This document shows positions 428-25,913 of a DNA stretch of 26,519 nucleotides, in pieces; position 1 is the first letter of the stretch; every line of letters starts with the position of its first letter. The stretch is from NCBI GenBank assembly GCA_024279735.1, contig JAJRRF010000087.1:1-26519 (forward strand), written 5' to 3'. Made by a program: the position numbers and the translations under genes. The DNA comes from Alphaproteobacteria bacterium. GTDB lineage: Bacteria; Pseudomonadota; Alphaproteobacteria; Rhizobiales; JAJRRF01. The notes under the pieces were generated by a model. That model worked only from the letters and a program-made list of their open reading frames with translations, was not told where the DNA came from and did not search any database.

Positions 428-2008
428 ATGCCAGAAATTCAAAAAAATCTCGATGTTTTCAAGTCTGTTATCATTAAAGAAAATGAGATTGGCCTACTGA
501 TGGAAAATGGTCAGTTTAAAAAAATATTGCAGCCTGGAAAATACACGTTCTGGAGTTTGAGGGCAGAACGCAAGGTTCATATTTTAGATACATTTTCAAC
601 AGAACTCGCAGAGTTTTGGGCTGTGATCTTGCTCAAAAAGAGGCCTGCTGAGGCTGCGAAATTGTTTGAGGTGGTTGAGACAGGGGCAGACCAAATTGCC
701 TTGCTCTATCAGGATAACAAACCAGTCATGTTACTCAAGCCCTGGCAAAAAAAATATTTCTGGAAGATGCGCCACACGATTGATGTGGAATATATTTCCA
801 TCCAGACAGGTAAGGTTCTGTCTGAAGAGTACCGTACTGTCATGGAACAAATAAGACCTGAAAGCATGGTTGTCTCCCAGACAATAGGAGCTTCCCATAT
901 TGGATTGATGTATATTGATGACCAGTTTGACAGGGTGCTGTATCCTGGTGTCTATAGCTTTTGGAAGAATGAGGGGAAAATCTCATTTGAGCGTTATGAC
1001 TGTCTTAACAGAGCCAGCAATGGATTGCTTGAAAAACAGGCCAAGGAATTATTGGCTCATGCCCCAGACGAAGCCGACAAGCTGCTAGAAGTTGTCACTA
1101 CAAAAGAAAGCCAAGTGGCTGTTGTCTCTTGGGATGAGAAGCCCTTTTTAGTATTGAAACCGTGGCAGACCAAATATTATTTCAAAAAGCTTTCTAATGT
1201 CCATGTTGACTATATTACCATTGCCACAGGTCAAGAAGTGCCCAAGGAGTATCGCGCTGTTTTGGAAAAGCTCGATACAGGCCAGTTGGTACAGTCTTTG
1301 ACAATAGCGCATTTCCACACTGGTCTGATGTTTGTCGATGGCAAACTGGTGCGGGAACTGAAGCCCGGGGCCTATAGCTTTTGGCAAAATGAGGGGCAGG
1401 TTGCCTTCCAGATCATTGATTTGCGGCCACAGCAGCTTGAGGTTACAGCCCAGGAAATTTTGACCAAGGACAAGATTTCCCTGCGTGTCACCCTGTCTGC
1501 CTTTATGACGGTGCGGGATGCCTGCAAGACAGTAGAATCCTCTGTTGACCATAACGAGCATCTTTACCGCCTGGTTCAGTTTGCTGTGCGTGAGGCTGTG
1601 GGCAACCGTAGCCTGGATGAGGTCTTGGGCAGCCGCGAAAAGGTTGACAGCCAGATCGTGAATCATGTCCGTGAACATATGGGTGATATTGGTATCAGCT
1701 TGGAGGGGCTGGGCATTAAGGACATTATCCTACCTGGTGAGATGCGTGACATGCTCAACAAGGTGGTGATGGCCGAAAAGACTGCCCAGGCCAATTTGAT
1801 CCGCCGCCGCGAGGAAACAGCAGCAACTCGGTCCTTGCTCAATACTGCCAAGTTGATGGACGGCAGCCCGACCCTGATGCGGCTGAAGGAGCTGGAAACT
1901 CTGGAAAAGCTGACCGAAAAGGTTGGCCGCATCGACCTTCACGCAGGCGACAAGGGCGGCCTGGACGCGCTACTCTCTGGGTTGCTGAAAAGTGAGAAGA
2001 GTGAGTAG
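428..2008 (+). CDS. SPFH/band-7 (stomatin/flotillin-like) domain protein with triplicated N-terminal repeat region and C-terminal coiled coil. It has no predicted TM segment.
   Basis: The C-terminal about 180 aa (LRVTLSAFMTVRD...LGIKDIILPGEMRDMLNKVVMAEKTAQANLIRRREETAA...) matches the SPFH core. The N-terminal beta-hairpin motif PGxYxFW recurs at residues about 36, 173 and 313. Confidence 0.85.
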   Translation: MPEIQKNLDVFKSVIIKENEIGLLMENGQFKKILQPGKYTFWSLRAERKVHILDTFSTELAEFWAVILLKKRPAEAAKLFEVVETGADQIALLYQDNKPVMLLKPWQKKYFWKMRHTIDVEYISIQTGKVLSEEYRTVMEQIRPESMVVSQTIGASHIGLMYIDDQFDRVLYPGVYSFWKNEGKISFERYDCLNRASNGLLEKQAKELLAHAPDEADKLLEVVTTKESQVAVVSWDEKPFLVLKPWQTKYYFKKLSNVHVDYITIATGQEVPKEYRAVLEKLDTGQLVQSLTIAHFHTGLMFVDGKLVRELKPGAYSFWQNEGQVAFQIIDLRPQQLEVTAQEILTKDKISLRVTLSAFMTVRDACKTVESSVDHNEHLYRLVQFAVREAVGNRSLDEVLGSREKVDSQIVNHVREHMGDIGISLEGLGIKDIILPGEMRDMLNKVVMAEKTAQANLIRRREETAATRSLLNTAKLMDGSPTLMRLKELETLEKLTEKVGRIDLHAGDKGGLDALLSGLLKSEKSE

Positions 2009-2017
2009 GGGCTAACC

Positions 2018-2048
2018 ACTGTCATCCCGAAGAAATGCGGGATGATAG
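2018..2048. repeat. REP-like hairpin GTCATCCCG-aagaaat-GCGGGATGA, terminator-like, directly after the SPFH stop
   Basis: Stem of 8/9 bp with a 7-nt loop. The same motif recurs at 20205-20237 and inverted at 20318-20352. Confidence 0.5.
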
Positions 2049-2081
2049 TAATGGGGGCATTAGGCTTGCTTTAAAGTTGCA

Positions 2082-2188
2082 CTAGAGCATAGTGCGAGCA
2101 AATCGAATCGACTTAACTGGTTAAAGTATGTGACCAATTAAGAATCTAGGGCAACCTCTTGACCATGTTTAAATGCAGGTTGCTCTAG
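2082..2188. repeat. MITE-like dispersed repeat, copy A (about 107 bp), with terminal inverted repeats CTAGAGCA...TGCTCTAG
   Basis: Shares GCATAGTGCGAGCAAATCG at the 5' end and GCAGGTTGCTCTAG at the 3' end with copies at 14024-14126 and 24679-24784. Confidence 0.7.
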
Positions 2189-2221
2189 ACCAGTTGGTCT
2201 AATTGTTGTATAGCTTGCCAA

Positions 2222-3151
2222 ATGCAAACAATACTCTCAATCAAGAACCTGACCAAGACTTATGGTGAGGACTTTACTGCCCTGAACGATGTATCCCTTG
2301 AGATCAGGAAGGGCGAAATCTTTGCCCTGCTTGGGCCAAACGGGGCAGGTAAGACCACCTTAATCAGCACGATTTGCGGTATTGTCAATCCAAGTGGCGG
2401 CACTGTTACGGTGGATGGCCATGACATTATCACAAACTACCGCGCTGCCCGCGCCATGATTGGTCTTGTGCCGCAAGAACTCACGACTGACAGTTTTGAA
2501 ACGGTCTGGGATACGGTCAGTTTTACACGCGGCCTGTTTGGCAAAAAGCGTGATAACGCGCTGGTCAGCAAGATTTTAAAAGACCTCTCGCTGTATGACA
2601 AGAAAGACAACAAGATCATGACGCTGTCTGGCGGCATGAAACGCCGCGTCCTGATTGCCAAGGCCCTGTCGCATGAACCAAGGATATTATTCCTGGATGA
2701 GCCGACAGCCGGGGTGGATGTCGAGCTGCGCAAGGACATGTGGGCGGTGGTGCGCGGCTTGCAGCAAAGCGGGGTGACCATCATCCTGACCACCCACTAT
2801 ATTGAGGAAGCCGAGGAAATGGCTGACCGAGTGGGCATTATCAGCAAGGGCGAGATTATCCTGGTGGAGGACAAGGCCACCCTGATGGCCAAGCTGGGCA
2901 AGAAGCATTTGACGCTGGAACTGTGTGAAAAGCTGGAGACTGTTCCAGACACCCTGAAAGGCTATGACCTGTCCCTGTCAGACGACGGTTTTTCGCTGGT
3001 TTACCAATATGATAGCACTGGCAAGACGACTGGTATTACTGGCCTGCTCGACAAGCTAAAGGGCGAAAACATCGCCTTCCGCGACCTCAGCACAGGCCAA
3101 CGTTCCCTGGAAGATATTTTTGTGGGGCTGGTGAAGGGGGGAGAGGGATGA
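2222..3151 (+). CDS. yadG: ABC transporter ATP-binding protein, ABC-2 exporter type (YadG-like)
   Basis: Walker [12 protein letters not shown], signature LSGGMKRRV, Walker [13 protein letters not shown] and H-loop TTHY are all present. The overall layout matches E. coli YadG. Confidence 0.9.
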
Positions 3152-3435
3152 CAGGCCAGAAAACGGCTGAACTCATCAAGGTTGTGGATGAAATGACTGT
3201 TTTGCTGAAACAGCATAGTGAAGAAAACTGGGTAAGCTGGATGGGGCAGGTCTCTGCCCGCCTTAAAAATTCGGACTATTCAGGAATAGAAAAGCTGCTG
3301 GGGGCGTATGGCGGCATGGGGTCTTTTAATGATTTCGTGTTGATTGCGAAGCCCTCAGCCAATGAACAGCTCAATGTCTTGAGGCATAAGGCTTGGCAAC
3401 TGGCGACTGATATAAAGCGGGATTATACTGGTTGA
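3148..3435 (+). CDS. small hypothetical protein (95 aa) inserted between the ABC ATPase and permease genes
   Basis: ATGA start/stop overlap with yadG. A strong SD GGGGGAGAGGG lies 5-8 nt upstream. No recognisable domain. Confidence 0.55.
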
Positions 3436-3455
3436 CATAAATAAAGGCCTTTCTT

Positions 3456-3548
3456 GTCGGTCGACTGCTCTGTAGTTGACTGGAACGTTTTGACACTCAA
3501 GGTTGTTGGGCAGTAACGTTCCAGTTAAGGACAGAGCTCTTAACCGAC
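3456..3548. repeat. 93-bp compound inverted repeat (stems 6+7+10 bp: GTCGGT/ACCGAC, GCTCTGT/ACAGAGC, CTGGAACGTT/AACGTTCCAG) in the yadG-yadH intergenic region
   Basis: Complementarity read directly. Internal TTGAC motifs occur at about 3476 and 3490. Confidence 0.6.
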
Positions 3549-3794
3549 ATGTGGCGACAGGGATTTGGAGAAGCAGAATAATGCGAGGCTATGTCAATAT
3601 TCTCCAAAATTCACTATAACCCCCCATACTTTCCATCGTCATCATCGGGCTTGTCCCGCTGTTCCATGTCTTAAGTTTTGGTCTTGATACAAAGGCTGGT
3701 TATTGTGCTTTACAGTTTAAAAGATGGATAGTTGGAACAAGTCCAACTATGATGTGTGATGAGAAAATTAGGGGCAGGACGGAAAAGGCAAAAT

Positions 3795-13541: not shown

Positions 13542-14027
13542 ATGCCACAGCTCAATCCCGAATTTTTTGCGCCCCAGTTGATCTGGCTGGCTCTGACCTT
13601 TATTGTGTTCTATTTCATAATGTCTCGTAAGATTGTGCCTCTCATTGGCAATGTCATTGAAAAGCGTGAGGAACGGATCAGTTCAGATCTTAAGAAGGCT
13701 GAAACGCTGAAGAAGGATTTGAGTGAAGCAATTGCCAGTTATGAACAGGCGATTGCGGAGGCCAGAAGCAAGGCGTATGATATTGTTCAGGCAAACCAAA
13801 AGAAGCTTTCTGCTGAAGTGGAGGCCGAACAAAAGCTTGTTGAGGATCAGATAGACCAAAAGACCAAAGATTCAGAGCAGCGGATTGCTGCTGCCAGGGA
13901 TACAGCACTGGCACAGATTAATGATATTGCGGTTGGTACGACCGAAGAAATATTACAGTCTCTGACAGGGTCAAAGCCTTCTGGAGATAAGGTTTTGGAT
14001 GCGATTTCTTCGGTATCTTCATCTTAG
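13542..14027 (+). CDS. atpF2: F0F1 ATP synthase subunit b'
   Basis: Single N-terminal TM followed by a long charged coiled coil. Its position between c and b is typical of alphaproteobacteria. Confidence 0.88.
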   Translation: MPQLNPEFFAPQLIWLALTFIVFYFIMSRKIVPLIGNVIEKREERISSDLKKAETLKKDLSEAIASYEQAIAEARSKAYDIVQANQKKLSAEVEAEQKLVEDQIDQKTKDSEQRIAAARDTALAQINDIAVGTTEEILQSLTGSKPSGDKVLDAISSVSSS

Positions 14028-14126
14028 TGCATAGTGCGAGCAAATCGTTACGATTTGCGGGTTATATGCGCCATCATAGGGGCTAGGCAAGGTCAACTGA
14101 CCGAACCTGCTTGCAGGTTGCTCTAG
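14024..14126. repeat. MITE-like dispersed repeat, copy B (about 103 bp), between atpF2 and atpF. Its 5' end overlaps the atpF2 TAG stop codon.
   Basis: Nearly identical to copy C over about 60 bp. The same TIR termini are present. Confidence 0.7.
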
Positions 14127-17279: not shown

Positions 17280-18110
17280 ATGGAAATAGCATCAAGAAAA
17301 CCAAAAGTATTTATAGCTTCTTCATTAGAGGGAAGAAGTATTGTTGATGCTATTCACGTTAACATAGAACATGAATGTGAAGTCACTCCTTGGTATCATA
17401 GCTTTACACCTTCTAGTAATACCTTAGATGATTTGATTATATCATCTAGTGCTTCTGATTTTGCTTTGTTTGTGTTTCAACCCGATGATCTCACACTTAT
17501 AAGGAGTAAAGCAGAGCCAATGGTTAGAGATAATGTTCTATTTGAAATGGGAATATTTATCGGGACTCTTGGTCGGGAAAGGGTGTTTCTTCTGAAGCCG
17601 TCTCATGAAACATTATGCTTGCCAACTGACTTAGCTGGTTTGATTTATTTGGGATATGAAGCAAATAGAACTGATCAAAATTTAGAAGCAGCCACTAATC
17701 CCGCCTGCTCTAAAATAAAGAAATGTATAAAAGAAAGAGGGGCTTTGAATTTTGGAAATTTTTCAAAAACCAACAAGCAAAGTGTCAATTTTCCTGAATA
17801 TGAACTTGATGAAATAGATTATATTTTCTTGCAGAAATGTTCTGCTAGCCATACTTCCCATCCTGAAGGGTTAACCTTTGAAAGTCTTTCTTTTTCTATT
17901 AATAATAGGAAGAAAGAAGACGCAATAAGAAAATCAGCTCTTAAACTTCACAGAATGAAATGTATTGATCTTAGTATAGAAGTAGAAGACTTCGATATAA
18001 ATGATCCGCCAAGACAAGAGTATTACTATACCATCACAGAAATAGGGATTGATCTATTGTTAAAACACGATTTTTCAAAAAAGACTTTTGACGATGAGAT
18101 TCCATTCTGA
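17280..18110 (+). CDS. TIR-like domain protein (COG4271/PF10137-type 'predicted nucleotide-binding protein containing TIR-like domain') fused to a C-terminal winged-helix-like domain. It is AT-rich and likely horizontally acquired.
   Basis: Motifs KVFIASS, ALFVFQPDD, RDNVLFEMGIFIGTLGRERVFLLKP and PTDLAGLIYL. The first 120 nt are about 33% GC. Confidence 0.8.
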   Translation: MEIASRKPKVFIASSLEGRSIVDAIHVNIEHECEVTPWYHSFTPSSNTLDDLIISSSASDFALFVFQPDDLTLIRSKAEPMVRDNVLFEMGIFIGTLGRERVFLLKPSHETLCLPTDLAGLIYLGYEANRTDQNLEAATNPACSKIKKCIKERGALNFGNFSKTNKQSVNFPEYELDEIDYIFLQKCSASHTSHPEGLTFESLSFSINNRKKEDAIRKSALKLHRMKCIDLSIEVEDFDINDPPRQEYYYTITEIGIDLLLKHDFSKKTFDDEIPF

Positions 18111-18187
18111 TGATGTTGGTCAGGGGCTCTGTCCTATGGGGAATCTCATTCACACAACTATTAAAAAGTGAGTACGGATTCTGTAGG

Positions 18188-18210
18188 GGGGCATCCGTGT
18201 ATGCCCCTTC
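18188..18210 (+). terminator. hairpin GGGGCAT-ccgtgt-ATGCCCC plus TTC, downstream of the TIR-like gene
   Basis: Read directly from the sequence. Confidence 0.4.
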
Positions 18211-18434
18211 TAACGTAACGGGTCTTGGGTGATGTTGGGACGGAATTTGAAGCAACCAGCTGTTTTGACAGGTTATTTTATGAGCCTTTAGCCAGCAGGG
18301 CGGATACATGGATTCGCCCCTACATTGTGTGCCTGTATCCTTATTGGTCGCATACTTTAACCAGACAAGCCGCAGGCGACTTGTCTTCATGATGCTCTAA
18401 CGCCTACAGGCAATAAAACAAGAAAGCCCCTCAA

Positions 18435-20175: not shown

Positions 20176-20204
20176 GCTGCACATCCTAACACCCTACCAT
20201 TGTC

Positions 20205-20352
20205 ATACCGTAGAAATGCGGTATCCATGCCGTGAAATTTGCGTTGAAATCGCAAATGTTTGTTTTGGTATTGTGAGCCGCTGGATCGTAAAAAATGTTG
20301 GTCTTTTTCATGTTGACAGTGCAGGGCATGGATACCGCGTCGTAGCGCGGCA
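20205..20352. repeat. about 150-bp composite element: two inverted copies of the hairpin repeat (20205-20237 and 20318-20352) flanking about 80 bp that contains the palindrome ATTTGCGttgaaatCGCAAAT
   Basis: The reverse complement of the right copy aligns with the left copy: TGTCAT(a/g)CCG...GCGGTATCCATGCC. Confidence 0.6.
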
Positions 20353-20433
20353 TGACAGTGGGTGTGTACTTTACACTTAAAAGAGTGTCGAGGTCTGAAG
20401 GAATTGATAAAAGTGCTTGTTTTGCGGGTGTTC

Positions 20434-24172: not shown

Positions 24173-24577
24173 CTATTTGGCATCTGAAAGTGTCTTGAGA
24201 TAGGCAAGCAGGCGGTTACGCTTCTTGTCTTTCTTTATTCCAGAAAAAGACATTTTTGTACCCTTGACCAGTTTGGCAGGTTTCTTCAAATATTCGCTGA
24301 GAGTGGCCTCATCCCATACCTTGTCGCCTTCACCAAATTTTTTCATGGCTGTGGAATATTTATAGCCTTCAGTTGTTGCAATCTTTTTACCCATAATACC
24401 GAACAGGTTAGGGCCAACCTTGGCCTTGCCGCCTTTATCCATTGTATGGCAGGCTGTGCATTTTTTCTTGAACATCTTGGCACCTTTTTTGATGTCTTTT
24501 GCTTCATCAGCAAAGGCACCGCCAGAAAAGGCAACCATTGAAACGGCAATAAGGCCAGCTTTTAGAATTTTGTTCAT
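24173..24577 (-). CDS. class I c-type cytochrome (c2/c550-like) with signal peptide. The start is set at MNKILKAGLIAV...; the ORF-track start is 24622.
   Basis: CTACH heme-binding motif, a distal Met ligand region (KMSFSG) and an N-terminal signal peptide. Confidence 0.88.
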   Translation of the reverse strand: MNKILKAGLIAVSMVAFSGGAFADEAKDIKKGAKMFKKKCTACHTMDKGGKAKVGPNLFGIMGKKIATTEGYKYSTAMKKFGEGDKVWDEATLSEYLKKPAKLVKGTKMSFSGIKKDKKRNRLLAYLKTLSDAK

Positions 24578-24678
24578 ATCTCTTTGTTCCTTCATTTCTC
24601 TATAGTGTGTCACCAGATGCAAAATCTAGTTCCTGCATCATAATAAACCTTCCCCAAACAAAAAGTACGTAGAAATAC

Positions 24679-24784
24679 CCTAGTGCATAGTGCGAGCAAA
24701 TCGTTACGATTTGCGGGTTAAGATATGCGCCATATAAGGGCTAGAGCAAGGTCGGATGACCGCAATTGCTTGCAATTTGCTCTA
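24679..24784. repeat. MITE-like dispersed repeat, copy C (about 106 bp)
   Basis: CTAGTGCATAGTGCGAGCAAATCGTTACGATTTGCGGG...TTTGCTCTAG. Nearly identical to copy B. Confidence 0.7.
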
Positions 24785-24980
24785 GACCTCCACGAACATT
24801 TGATTTTCCTGAATTATCGACAACAAATCAGATAGAATTAAGGCCATTCAGCGCGACGAATCGTAGCGTGGAAAACAGCAATAATACGCAAGTCTTTATC
24901 ATCTCATGTATTTTTCAGGTTTTACTTCTTGTCTGGACGCTAACTAGCCGATTATACTGGAAAGATAAAGGGAGAAGATT

Positions 24981-25913
24981 ATGCTTGGGAAAACCTTGGT
25001 TGTTCTTATGACAGGCCTGTTATGCGCGAAAGCTGCTGTTGCAGGGGAGATGGGGGCTGCTGACACAGTGACAGGGCGGCAGTTTGATGCACCCTCAAAC
25101 CGTTTGCCAACAGACAAGAAATTCTGGTGGTCTGATGACTGGTATGACAGGGGCATTTTACCTGTTCCTGTCAATGAGCAGGTGATTGAACGCAAGACCA
25201 GCTATACCAACACGGCAGACGGGACGGATGTGCCTGCGATCATCTACCGTCCGAAAAGGGCTGGCAAGTTTCCGGCCATCTTCTTTCAGCACGGGCGGCG
25301 CGGCCTGGACAAATATGTGCAGCGGCTGGCGCGGCGCATGGCAGCGCGGGGGTTTGTTGTGCTTGCGCCAGATGTTTATGAGGCACGTTTTATCAATGTC
25401 ATGCCTTTGGAACATAAGCGGGAGACAGAAGGGGATGTCAATGCTGGGATTGATGTCTTGCTTGCCCTGCCAGATGTCTCAACCTCAAAGGCTTGCATCT
25501 ATTCGCATACACGCGGCGGCTATTATTCCTTGCGGGTGGCTGTTCATTTCAAGCGGCAACAGGATGCACTGGCCTGTTATGTGTCGTTTTATCCGCATTG
25601 GCAAAACCCCAATGCCACCGAACCAGAGCAGGTTTATCGTTATGCTCCCGAGCTGGACAGGTTGACATTGCCGACCCGTATTTTTATCGGGGAATATGAG
25701 CAATACCAACGCCGACGTTCTATAGAGACAGCCGTAAAGCAGATGAAAATCATGGGACGAGATGTCAGGCTGATTATTTACCCAGGTGTGGGACGGGGTT
25801 TTGATTTTCGCCCACCGCATGTCCGTACATTCGCTGATGACCTGGCCACAAAGGACAGTAACCTGCGGGCAGCAGCTTTTTTCAGGAAACAGCTGGCGAA
25901 ATGGAAAAAGTGA
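24981..25913 (+). CDS. dienelactone hydrolase family alpha/beta hydrolase, secreted
   Basis: Signal peptide. DLH-like fold motifs (AIFFQHGRRG, VVLAPDVY). SD AGGGAGAAG. Confidence 0.8.
   Translation: MLGKTLVVLMTGLLCAKAAVAGEMGAADTVTGRQFDAPSNRLPTDKKFWWSDDWYDRGILPVPVNEQVIERKTSYTNTADGTDVPAIIYRPKRAGKFPAIFFQHGRRGLDKYVQRLARRMAARGFVVLAPDVYEARFINVMPLEHKRETEGDVNAGIDVLLALPDVSTSKACIYSHTRGGYYSLRVAVHFKRQQDALACYVSFYPHWQNPNATEPEQVYRYAPELDRLTLPTRIFIGEYEQYQRRRSIETAVKQMKIMGRDVRLIIYPGVGRGFDFRPPHVRTFADDLATKDSNLRAAAFFRKQLAKWKK

Follow-up and report, generated by a model that had tools for sequence, protein, structure and literature searches.

A short CTAG-bounded, MITE-like repeat family in an alphaproteobacterial contig

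Short structured repeats and CTAG-targeting elements

MITEPsy1 from Pseudomonas syringae pv. phaseolicola is a 100-nt MITE derived from the IS5 group, with a CTAG/YTAA duplication (PMC3189936). RUP from Streptococcus pneumoniae, a MITE derived from IS630/Tc1-mariner, measures 107–108 bp. The target of IS630 is TA within 5'-CTAG-3', as given in the entry for Tenzen and Ohtsubo (1991) listed in PMC2170065. IS711 duplicates TA at YTAR (PMC3163539), and Bru-RS1 and Bru-RS2 of Brucella, which are palindromic intergenic repeats of 103–106 bp, serve as hot spots for it (PMC3163539, PMC10800456). Structured intergenic repeats also include ERIC, Correia/NEMIS, RIME and the double-hairpin Pae-1 and Efa-1 (PMC2267715); all of these are often co-transcribed with their neighbors.

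The DNA analyzed here, referred to as the window, spans a whole contig (26,519 nucleotides) of an NCBI metagenome-assembled genome and contains a repeat family that can be set beside these systems. Like MITEPsy1, the element is ~100 nt long, non-coding, lineage-restricted and bounded by a tetranucleotide, with imperfect inverted ends (18 nt in MITEPsy1). Unlike MITEPsy1, it carries a third CTAG internally and is built of two hairpins; there is no sequence likeness between the two (the ends of MITEPsy1 are GGAAGGTCTGAAAAAGCC), and for MITEPsy1 a parent IS (ISPsy2) is established and transposition events have been trapped. IS630 and RUP are likened to the element by size and target, not by end sequences: the length is similar to that of RUP, the junctions are CTAG, and the asymmetry of one copy (B) fits a TA-only duplication, but the searches for the present element turned up neither an IS630-family member nor an end that matches. 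With Bru-RS1 and Bru-RS2, compared by description only, it shares a near-identical length, a palindromic build, intergenic placement, the link to YTAR and a Hyphomicrobiales-type host; the Bru-RS repeats are, however, described as targets of IS711 and not as elements that IS711 moves. It also belongs to the 100–150-bp class of ERIC, Correia/NEMIS, RIME, Pae-1 and Efa-1, being non-coding and mostly intergenic with one or two hairpins, and their mosaic or modular organization is found in it as well. No sequence match to families of this type was found by Rfam, plasmid BLASTN and 19-nt probes in GTDB representatives, which are indirect tests.

IS5 of Escherichia coli offers a further comparison. 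The copy in NZ_CP023826.1 shows a 4-bp duplication (CTAA-GGAAGGTGCGAACAAG...CTTATTCGCACCTTCC-CTAA), and such a 4-bp YTAR duplication is typical of the IS5 group. Shifted by one base, the IS5 inverted repeat GGAAGGTGCGAACAAGTCC and the element's left end, AGCATAGTGCGAGCAAATCG, agree at 13 of 19 positions; they disagree at the very tips (GGAAGG in IS5 versus AGCATA), and the right end fits the IS5 repeat less well, at 8–11 of 17 positions. The resemblance is a lead, drawn post hoc and with one family only.

The reading preferred here is that the repeat would be a lineage-restricted, non-autonomous, MITE-like derivative of a DDE transposon, non-coding and 103–107 bp long, to which a probability of roughly 0.55 is given on the basis of sequence comparison. 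The element is most likely ordinary in kind, a previously unnamed bacterial MITE or structured intergenic repeat.

Copies and boundaries of the repeat family

Three full copies and one partial copy are present in the 26.5-kb contig, where the chance expectation is 0. Copy A (2082–2188, + strand, 107 nt) and copy C (24680–24785, + strand, 106 nt) run from CTAG to CTAG, copy B (14024–14126, + strand, 103 nt) runs from TTAG to CTAG, and copy D (18329–18400, − strand) is a partial copy of the 5' module only, starting with TTAG. The initial annotation had placed three copies in the window; all were recovered, with copy C lying one base further to the right than first described. The (C)TAG start that it gave to every copy applies as CTAG to A and C, but B begins with TTAG. 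A profile made from the three full copies returns them with nhmmer E-values of 1e-27 to 5e-32 and detected copy D at E 2e-5 over model positions 2–70. The 19-mer GCATAGTGCGAGCAAATCG occurs exactly three times in the window, once per full copy and always on the + strand, and was matched in 0 of 100 shuffles even with three mismatches tolerated.

In the alignment of copies A, B and C, likeness ends precisely at YTAG on the left and at CTAG on the right; on the left, A and C have CTAG and B and D have TTAG, and on the right all three full copies have CTAG. Between B and C, identity is 100% for the first 40 nt and 75% for the last 63 nt; near identity had been described over about 60 bp. Copy A has its first 24 nt and last 15 nt in common with B; its core, already described as diverged, is unlike those of B and C and resembles the core of D (35 nt, 83%). 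Because A shares its ends with B/C and its core with D, the family is mosaic. The elements contain no open frame, with stops in nearly all frames, in keeping with the lack of coding capacity first reported. Copy D, whose hairpin is GACAAGTCG/CGGCTTGTC, gives way to a REP-like hairpin of unrelated sequence. A complete 3' end of D on the far side of this insert (near 18246–18262, degenerate) was considered and set aside as marginal, as 34 of 500 shuffles scored equally.

Inverted ends and modular organization

Terminal inverted repeats are present as originally claimed, but they are imperfect and ~22 nt in length, not 8, with the form CTAGWGCAnnnTGCRAGCAA. In copy C, the left end (24680–24701, + strand) is CTAGTGCATAGTGCGAGCAAAT, and the corresponding left 22 nt are at 2082–2103 in A and 14024–14045 in B, both on the + strand; the right end of copy C (24764–24785, + strand), whose reverse complement is CTAGAGCAAATTGCAAGCAATT, matches its left end at 13 of 18 positions. 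The same comparison of the left with the reverse-complemented right end past CTAG gives 10/18 matches in A and 11/18 in B, and the shuffle p-values are 0.006 for A, 0.0016 for B and 0.0002 for C. Among the YTAG...CTAR pairs spaced 60–300 nt apart in the window, only the three full copies have such ends. The sole candidate for a CTAG-bounded analogue in the relatives (L002 3541–3662) was rejected, being AT-rich and unrelated in sequence to the element.

A third, internal CTAG is found near position 62 of every full copy, and the element is thereby divided into two modules. The 3' module is 43–45 nt long across copies and is closed by CTAGRGCAA/TTGCTCTAG; in copy C it is a 45-nt unit (24741–24785, + strand) closed by CTAGAGCAA/TTGCTCTAG, with equivalents at 14083–14126 in B and 2146–2188 in A, both on the + strand. 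CTAG is otherwise scarce: the contig contains 21 occurrences versus 102 expected, and eight of the 21 fall within the three full copies, which together span 316 nt, leaving 13 outside the elements versus about 100 expected from base composition (about 8-fold depletion). The depletion is milder in related loci, for example 35 versus 72 in L002.

Hairpins and structural constraint

The 5' module forms an irregular hairpin, GCAUA/UAUGC around GCAAAUCG/CGAUUUGC. In copy C the hairpin at 24696–24714 (+ strand) reads GCAAATCG-TTA-CGATTTGC, and that of copy B (14040–14058, + strand) is identical to it. The palindrome GCAAATCG-N3-CGATTTGC, which had been described as conserved, is perfect in B and C but degenerate in A (AAATCG/CGACTT, five of six pairs). 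The 3' module of copy C encloses two small hairpins, GGTC-GGAT-GACC and AATTG-CTTG-CAATT. Over the four-sequence alignment, the 21 proposed pairs give standard pairs in 90.7% of cells, against ~30% with the partners slid, and three pairs are altered on both sides: one in the 5' hairpin (A-U in B/C, G-C in D) and two in the 3' hairpin (ACCUG/CAGGU in B versus AAUUG/CAAUU in C). With few sequences, this covariation is statistically weak, since 48 of 500 shuffles do equally well. RNA folding, a check proposed with the initial annotation, gave two local hairpin modules with z-scores of −1.8 to −3.4, which are modest and alike on both strands. The hairpins are taken to be real features, but selection on them is suggested at most, and template-switch correction of quasi-palindromes can imitate compensated changes without selection.

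A rival reading takes the element to be mainly a host-selected, functional RNA or DNA module that would spread by recombination or gene conversion and not by transposition, acting either as an mRNA-stabilizing or processing hairpin pair or as a putative protein-binding site on the CTAGAGCA motif. This explanation, which is considered improbable, draws on the local folding of the two modules (with 91% of cells paired and both partners altered in three pairs), on G-U wobbles that occur on the element strand only, on mosaic copies that recall BIMEs and RIMEs, and on a CTAGRGCA motif of which each element has three, in a genome where CTAG is scarce; the full copies are, in addition, co-oriented with downstream genes, and B sits within an essential operon. 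Weighing against it are the modest and strand-symmetric z-scores, the ability of template switching to produce the compensated changes, the lack of a promoter or terminator signal and of an Rfam match, the functionally unrelated neighboring genes and the antisense position of copy D relative to its neighbors. The element is, moreover, missing from the same operon in every sampled relative, so it is dispensable there.

Genomic context and the stop codon of atpF'

The genes of the window point to an alphaproteobacterium (an atpI-B-E-F'-F operon, leuC, rplS and panB), and the best named matches of its ABC ATPase are from Hyphomicrobiales at about 72% identity. Copy A is flanked by an SPFH/Band-7 gene (428–2008) and by an ABC-transporter ATPase gene (2222–3151) that starts 34 nt downstream; copy B lies inside the ATP synthase F0 operon (atpIBEF'F), between atpF' (b') and atpF (b); copy C lies between a divergent cytochrome c gene (24173–24622, − strand) and a dienelactone-hydrolase-family gene (24981–25913); and copy D, in antisense orientation, separates a TIR-domain gene from panB. 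Each full copy has the same orientation as the gene downstream of it, and no consistent promoter, terminator or sRNA gene signal was found at the elements.

The description of all copies as intergenic is accurate for A and C, which lie between genes, but has to be amended for B, which lies within an operon and whose left junction supplies the TAG stop codon of atpF' (14025–14027, + strand). The C-terminus of AtpF' (...SSVSSS) is of equal length in the window, where the gene ends in TAG, and in the related loci L003 and L011, where it ends in TAA. As the end and length of AtpF' are the same as in these relatives, copy B is placed exactly on the stop codon, which the junction regenerates, and its insertion would therefore be harmless.

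Several further features surround copy A. The SPFH/Band-7 gene (526 aa) contains a direct repeat of 97 nt (880–976 and 1300–1396, 70% identity, 420 nt apart), which is a duplicated protein segment. Directly 3' of copy A is a palindrome, AGACCAGTTGGTCT (2186–2201), which precedes the ABC-ATPase start by about 20 nt; it is kept in a relative, L009, as AGACCAATTGGTTT (903–920) and looks like a putative operator of the transporter operon, outside the element. Between the ABC ATPase and the ABC-2 permease, the window (3148–3755) has a DUF6966 gene and about 320 nt of non-coding DNA; L009 (1872–2774) has an EamA transporter gene in this interval, and the operon interior has thus been remodeled. An inverted repeat with 35-nt arms (3455–3489 and 3515–3549, 80% complementary, 25-nt loop) lies between the DUF6966 and ABC-2 permease genes; one arm recurs at 83% at 18113–18135, right after the TIR-domain gene, and the inverted repeat is possibly a third repeat family.

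Absence of the element at orthologous sites

Related loci were gathered via the AtpF protein, and the site of copy B was compared in L002, L003, L004, L005, L006 and L011. Copy B is missing in all six atpF'-atpF spacers, including that of L005, the closest relative found, with 89% AtpF identity and a spacer of 69 bp. The spacer measures 30–33 bp in L003, L004, L006 and L011, and that of L002 is 165 bp of unrelated sequence. Copy A is likewise missing upstream of the orthologous ABC ATPase (85% identity) in L009 (GCA_054001895.1). A second related assembly is GCA_054001935.1. About 47 kb of relatives' DNA contains 0 copies of the element, compared to four in the 26.5 kb of the window. Judged from these sequences, absence at orthologous sites is what a recent, lineage-specific insertion would leave. 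The initial annotation had already favored a MITE-type mobile repeat and had named conservation at orthologous positions as the observation that would speak for a regulatory motif; no such conservation was seen for copy B (6/6) or for copy A (L009).

At site A, the relative L009 has a single CTAG, ...TGCAA-CTAG-ACCAATTGG (ACCAATTGGTTTG), where the window reads ...TTGCA-CTAG-[element]-CTAG-ACCAGTTGG (ACCAGTTGGTCTA). This single CTAG at the unoccupied site fits an insertion with TA or CTAG duplication, and the YTAG/CTAG junctions of the full copies likewise agree with the initial suggestion of TA or CTAG as the target. Orthology is clear for the right flank. The left flank has been rearranged and has another upstream gene; its similarity does not reach significance (a score as good arose in 74 of 500 shuffles), and the L009 sequence resembles the element's own 3' interior about equally well (27 of 500 shuffles). 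Owing to this weak left flank, a target duplication at site A is compatible with the data but unproven.

It could be argued that the repeat is instead an ancestral regulatory motif that the relatives have lost, since their spacers vary widely (30–165 bp) and deletions clearly occur. This is very improbable. Copy B is lacking at 6/6 loci, both close and distant, which one gain explains with much greater parsimony; the 40 nt over which B and C show 100% identity contrast with flanking intergenic DNA too diverged to be aligned among relatives; and the contexts of the four sites are unrelated to one another.

Searches for further copies and a partner enzyme

Rfam gave no match at gathering thresholds, and none at the elements up to E 10. 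BLASTN of copies A and C against 72,556 plasmids, rhizobial megaplasmids included, returned no match, and a composite of translated frames from gene calls reading into the element had no match up to E 10. The exact probe GCATAGTGCGAGCAAATCG was found 0 times in GTDB species representatives and 0 times in IMG/VR, and a two-part pattern also gave 0 matches in IMG/VR. A second probe, GGTTAAAGTATGYGACCAA, had two matches in GTDB representatives, both in unrelated contexts and dismissed as chance. Neither a transposase nor a Y1/RAYT gene was seen within the window, and the roughly 47 kb from relatives likewise contains no transposase. A full-length IS with ends like GAGCATAGTGCGAGCAA was found neither in the window nor by exact probes in GTDB representatives, JGI and IMG/VR.

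In JGI metagenomes, the probe GCATAGTGCGAGCAAATCG had one match, on a soil-type contig (L001). At positions 1987–3059, this contig carries an element of the IS5 family (DDE_Tnp_4) whose inverted ends measure 22 nt and whose transposase is frameshifted. It was rejected as a parent IS: the 19-mer is found about 5 nt inside the terminal inverted repeat, at some 27 nt from the tip, and the IS5-family ends (TAGACATTATCGG) and TAA/TNA-like duplication are unrelated to the element. The match is attributed to chance, and a few chance matches to a 19-mer are expected in a collection of the size of JGI. Two other classes of element were also set aside, namely integron attC sites, as no GTTRRRY/RYYYAAC core is present, and a group II intron fragment, as 105 bp with inverted ends does not fit an intron.

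Other repeats and features in the window

Two REP-like units, TGTAGGGG(C/G)G-ATCC-TGTAT-CCGCCC, each with a GTAG head and a GC-rich hairpin, are located at 18182–18208 (+ strand) and 18298–18324 (− strand). They are inverted and about 90 nt apart, an arrangement that is REPIN-like, and the second abuts the truncated copy D. The pair suggests that a RAYT/Y1 system may exist in the genome. A second small hairpin family, ACCAYTGTCATMCCG...CGGKATGA, occurs at 2015–2050, 20196–20224 (+ strand) and 20348–20360 (− strand), just 3' of the SPFH and TPR_21 genes; one unit is immediately upstream of copy A, and the two units within 20196–20360 face each other.

The gene of a CAP12/Pycsar-type TIR-domain protein (PF10137, E 2e-27) is found at 17280–18110, between leuC and panB. 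The GC content of this stretch is 37% versus 48% overall, and 3 of the 13 CTAGs outside the elements are located there. The gene is missing from that position in relatives, and in L002 an SMC gene follows leuC; the stretch is probably a small defense island.

Proposed mechanism of mobility

For the preferred MITE-like reading, a DDE transposase encoded elsewhere in the genome would bind the inverted ends and direct insertion to the TA within a YTAG site, with TA duplicated; a 4-bp CTAG duplication would be a close alternative. Target use of this sort is known for IS630 (TA duplication within CTAG), for the IS711/IS427 group (TA within YTAR) and for the IS5 group (4-bp YTAR). The junctions read Y-TA-G on the left (C, T, C and T in the four copies) and C-TA-G on the right in 3/3 full copies. 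If the element proper runs 5'-G...C-3', both junctions would read YTAG/CTAG as seen, and TA duplication in a TTAG target would give the asymmetry of copy B (TTAG left, CTAG right) without later mutation. The transposase could be of the IS630 or of the IS5/IS427 type. After insertion, the element probably rides passively in transcripts as a stable hairpin pair. The repeat family, its boundaries and inverted ends, its absence at orthologous sites and the single CTAG at one unoccupied site were observed directly, and from them we infer the transposase class, the duplication size and any RNA effect. Besides the lack of a transposase in the window and the weak left flank at site A, two observations speak against a MITE: the three full copies share one strand, and the ends are imperfect, with the right one palindromic and its arms changed in a compensated way between B and C, as would be more typical under a structural constraint than for a protein-binding end.

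An alternative is single-strand DNA movement by an HUH/Y1 enzyme (IS200/IS605 TnpA-like or RAYT-like), as for PATEs, REPs and REPINs. Insertion would then occur 3' of YTAG without duplication, the invariant right CTAG would be the element's own cleavage site, and the two subterminal GCAA...TTGC hairpins would be the recognition structures. Such movement would be consistent with a left tetranucleotide that varies (CTAG/TTAG) beside a right one that is constantly CTAG, and with a GCAA-NNNN-loop-NNNN-TTGC hairpin near both ends whose inner pairs are changed in a compensated way, but the covariation is weak, with 48 of 500 shuffles reaching the same level, and the true inverted repeat extends beyond the hairpins, whereas IS200/IS605-type elements are usually without one. 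The location of the three full copies on the strand of positive GC skew is the bias expected of single-strand transposition, yet with three copies this shared orientation lacks significance, and the partial copy D has the opposite one. REP-like GTAG-hairpin pairs in the same contig indicate that an HUH system may exist, but no Y1/RAYT gene was seen in the window; the L009 site is equally consistent with insertion 3' of CTAG, but GCGA, the 4 nt preceding the left hairpin, has no obvious guide-type match to YTAG. On balance, single-strand movement is a doubtful alternative, and it is slightly less probable still that the family is a new REP/PATE-like class moved by an HUH enzyme, with a YTAG site, two modules, three CTAGRGCA motifs and hairpins that are both selected and RNA structures in operons. 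DDE-mediated movement of a MITE-like element is the mechanism given preference.

Significance of the repeat family

Small mobile repeats mark recent genome change and can alter operon expression. They can also mislead annotation, and here an ATP synthase gene takes its stop codon from copy B. The element alone opens no new biological question; its neat details are a CTAG-rich sequence in a CTAG-poor genome, a landing on a stop codon and compensated changes in its hairpins. The family is apparently confined to one poorly sampled lineage, for which the best named protein matches are from Hyphomicrobiales, and it could serve as a strain marker; with the whole genome, it would point to its transposase.
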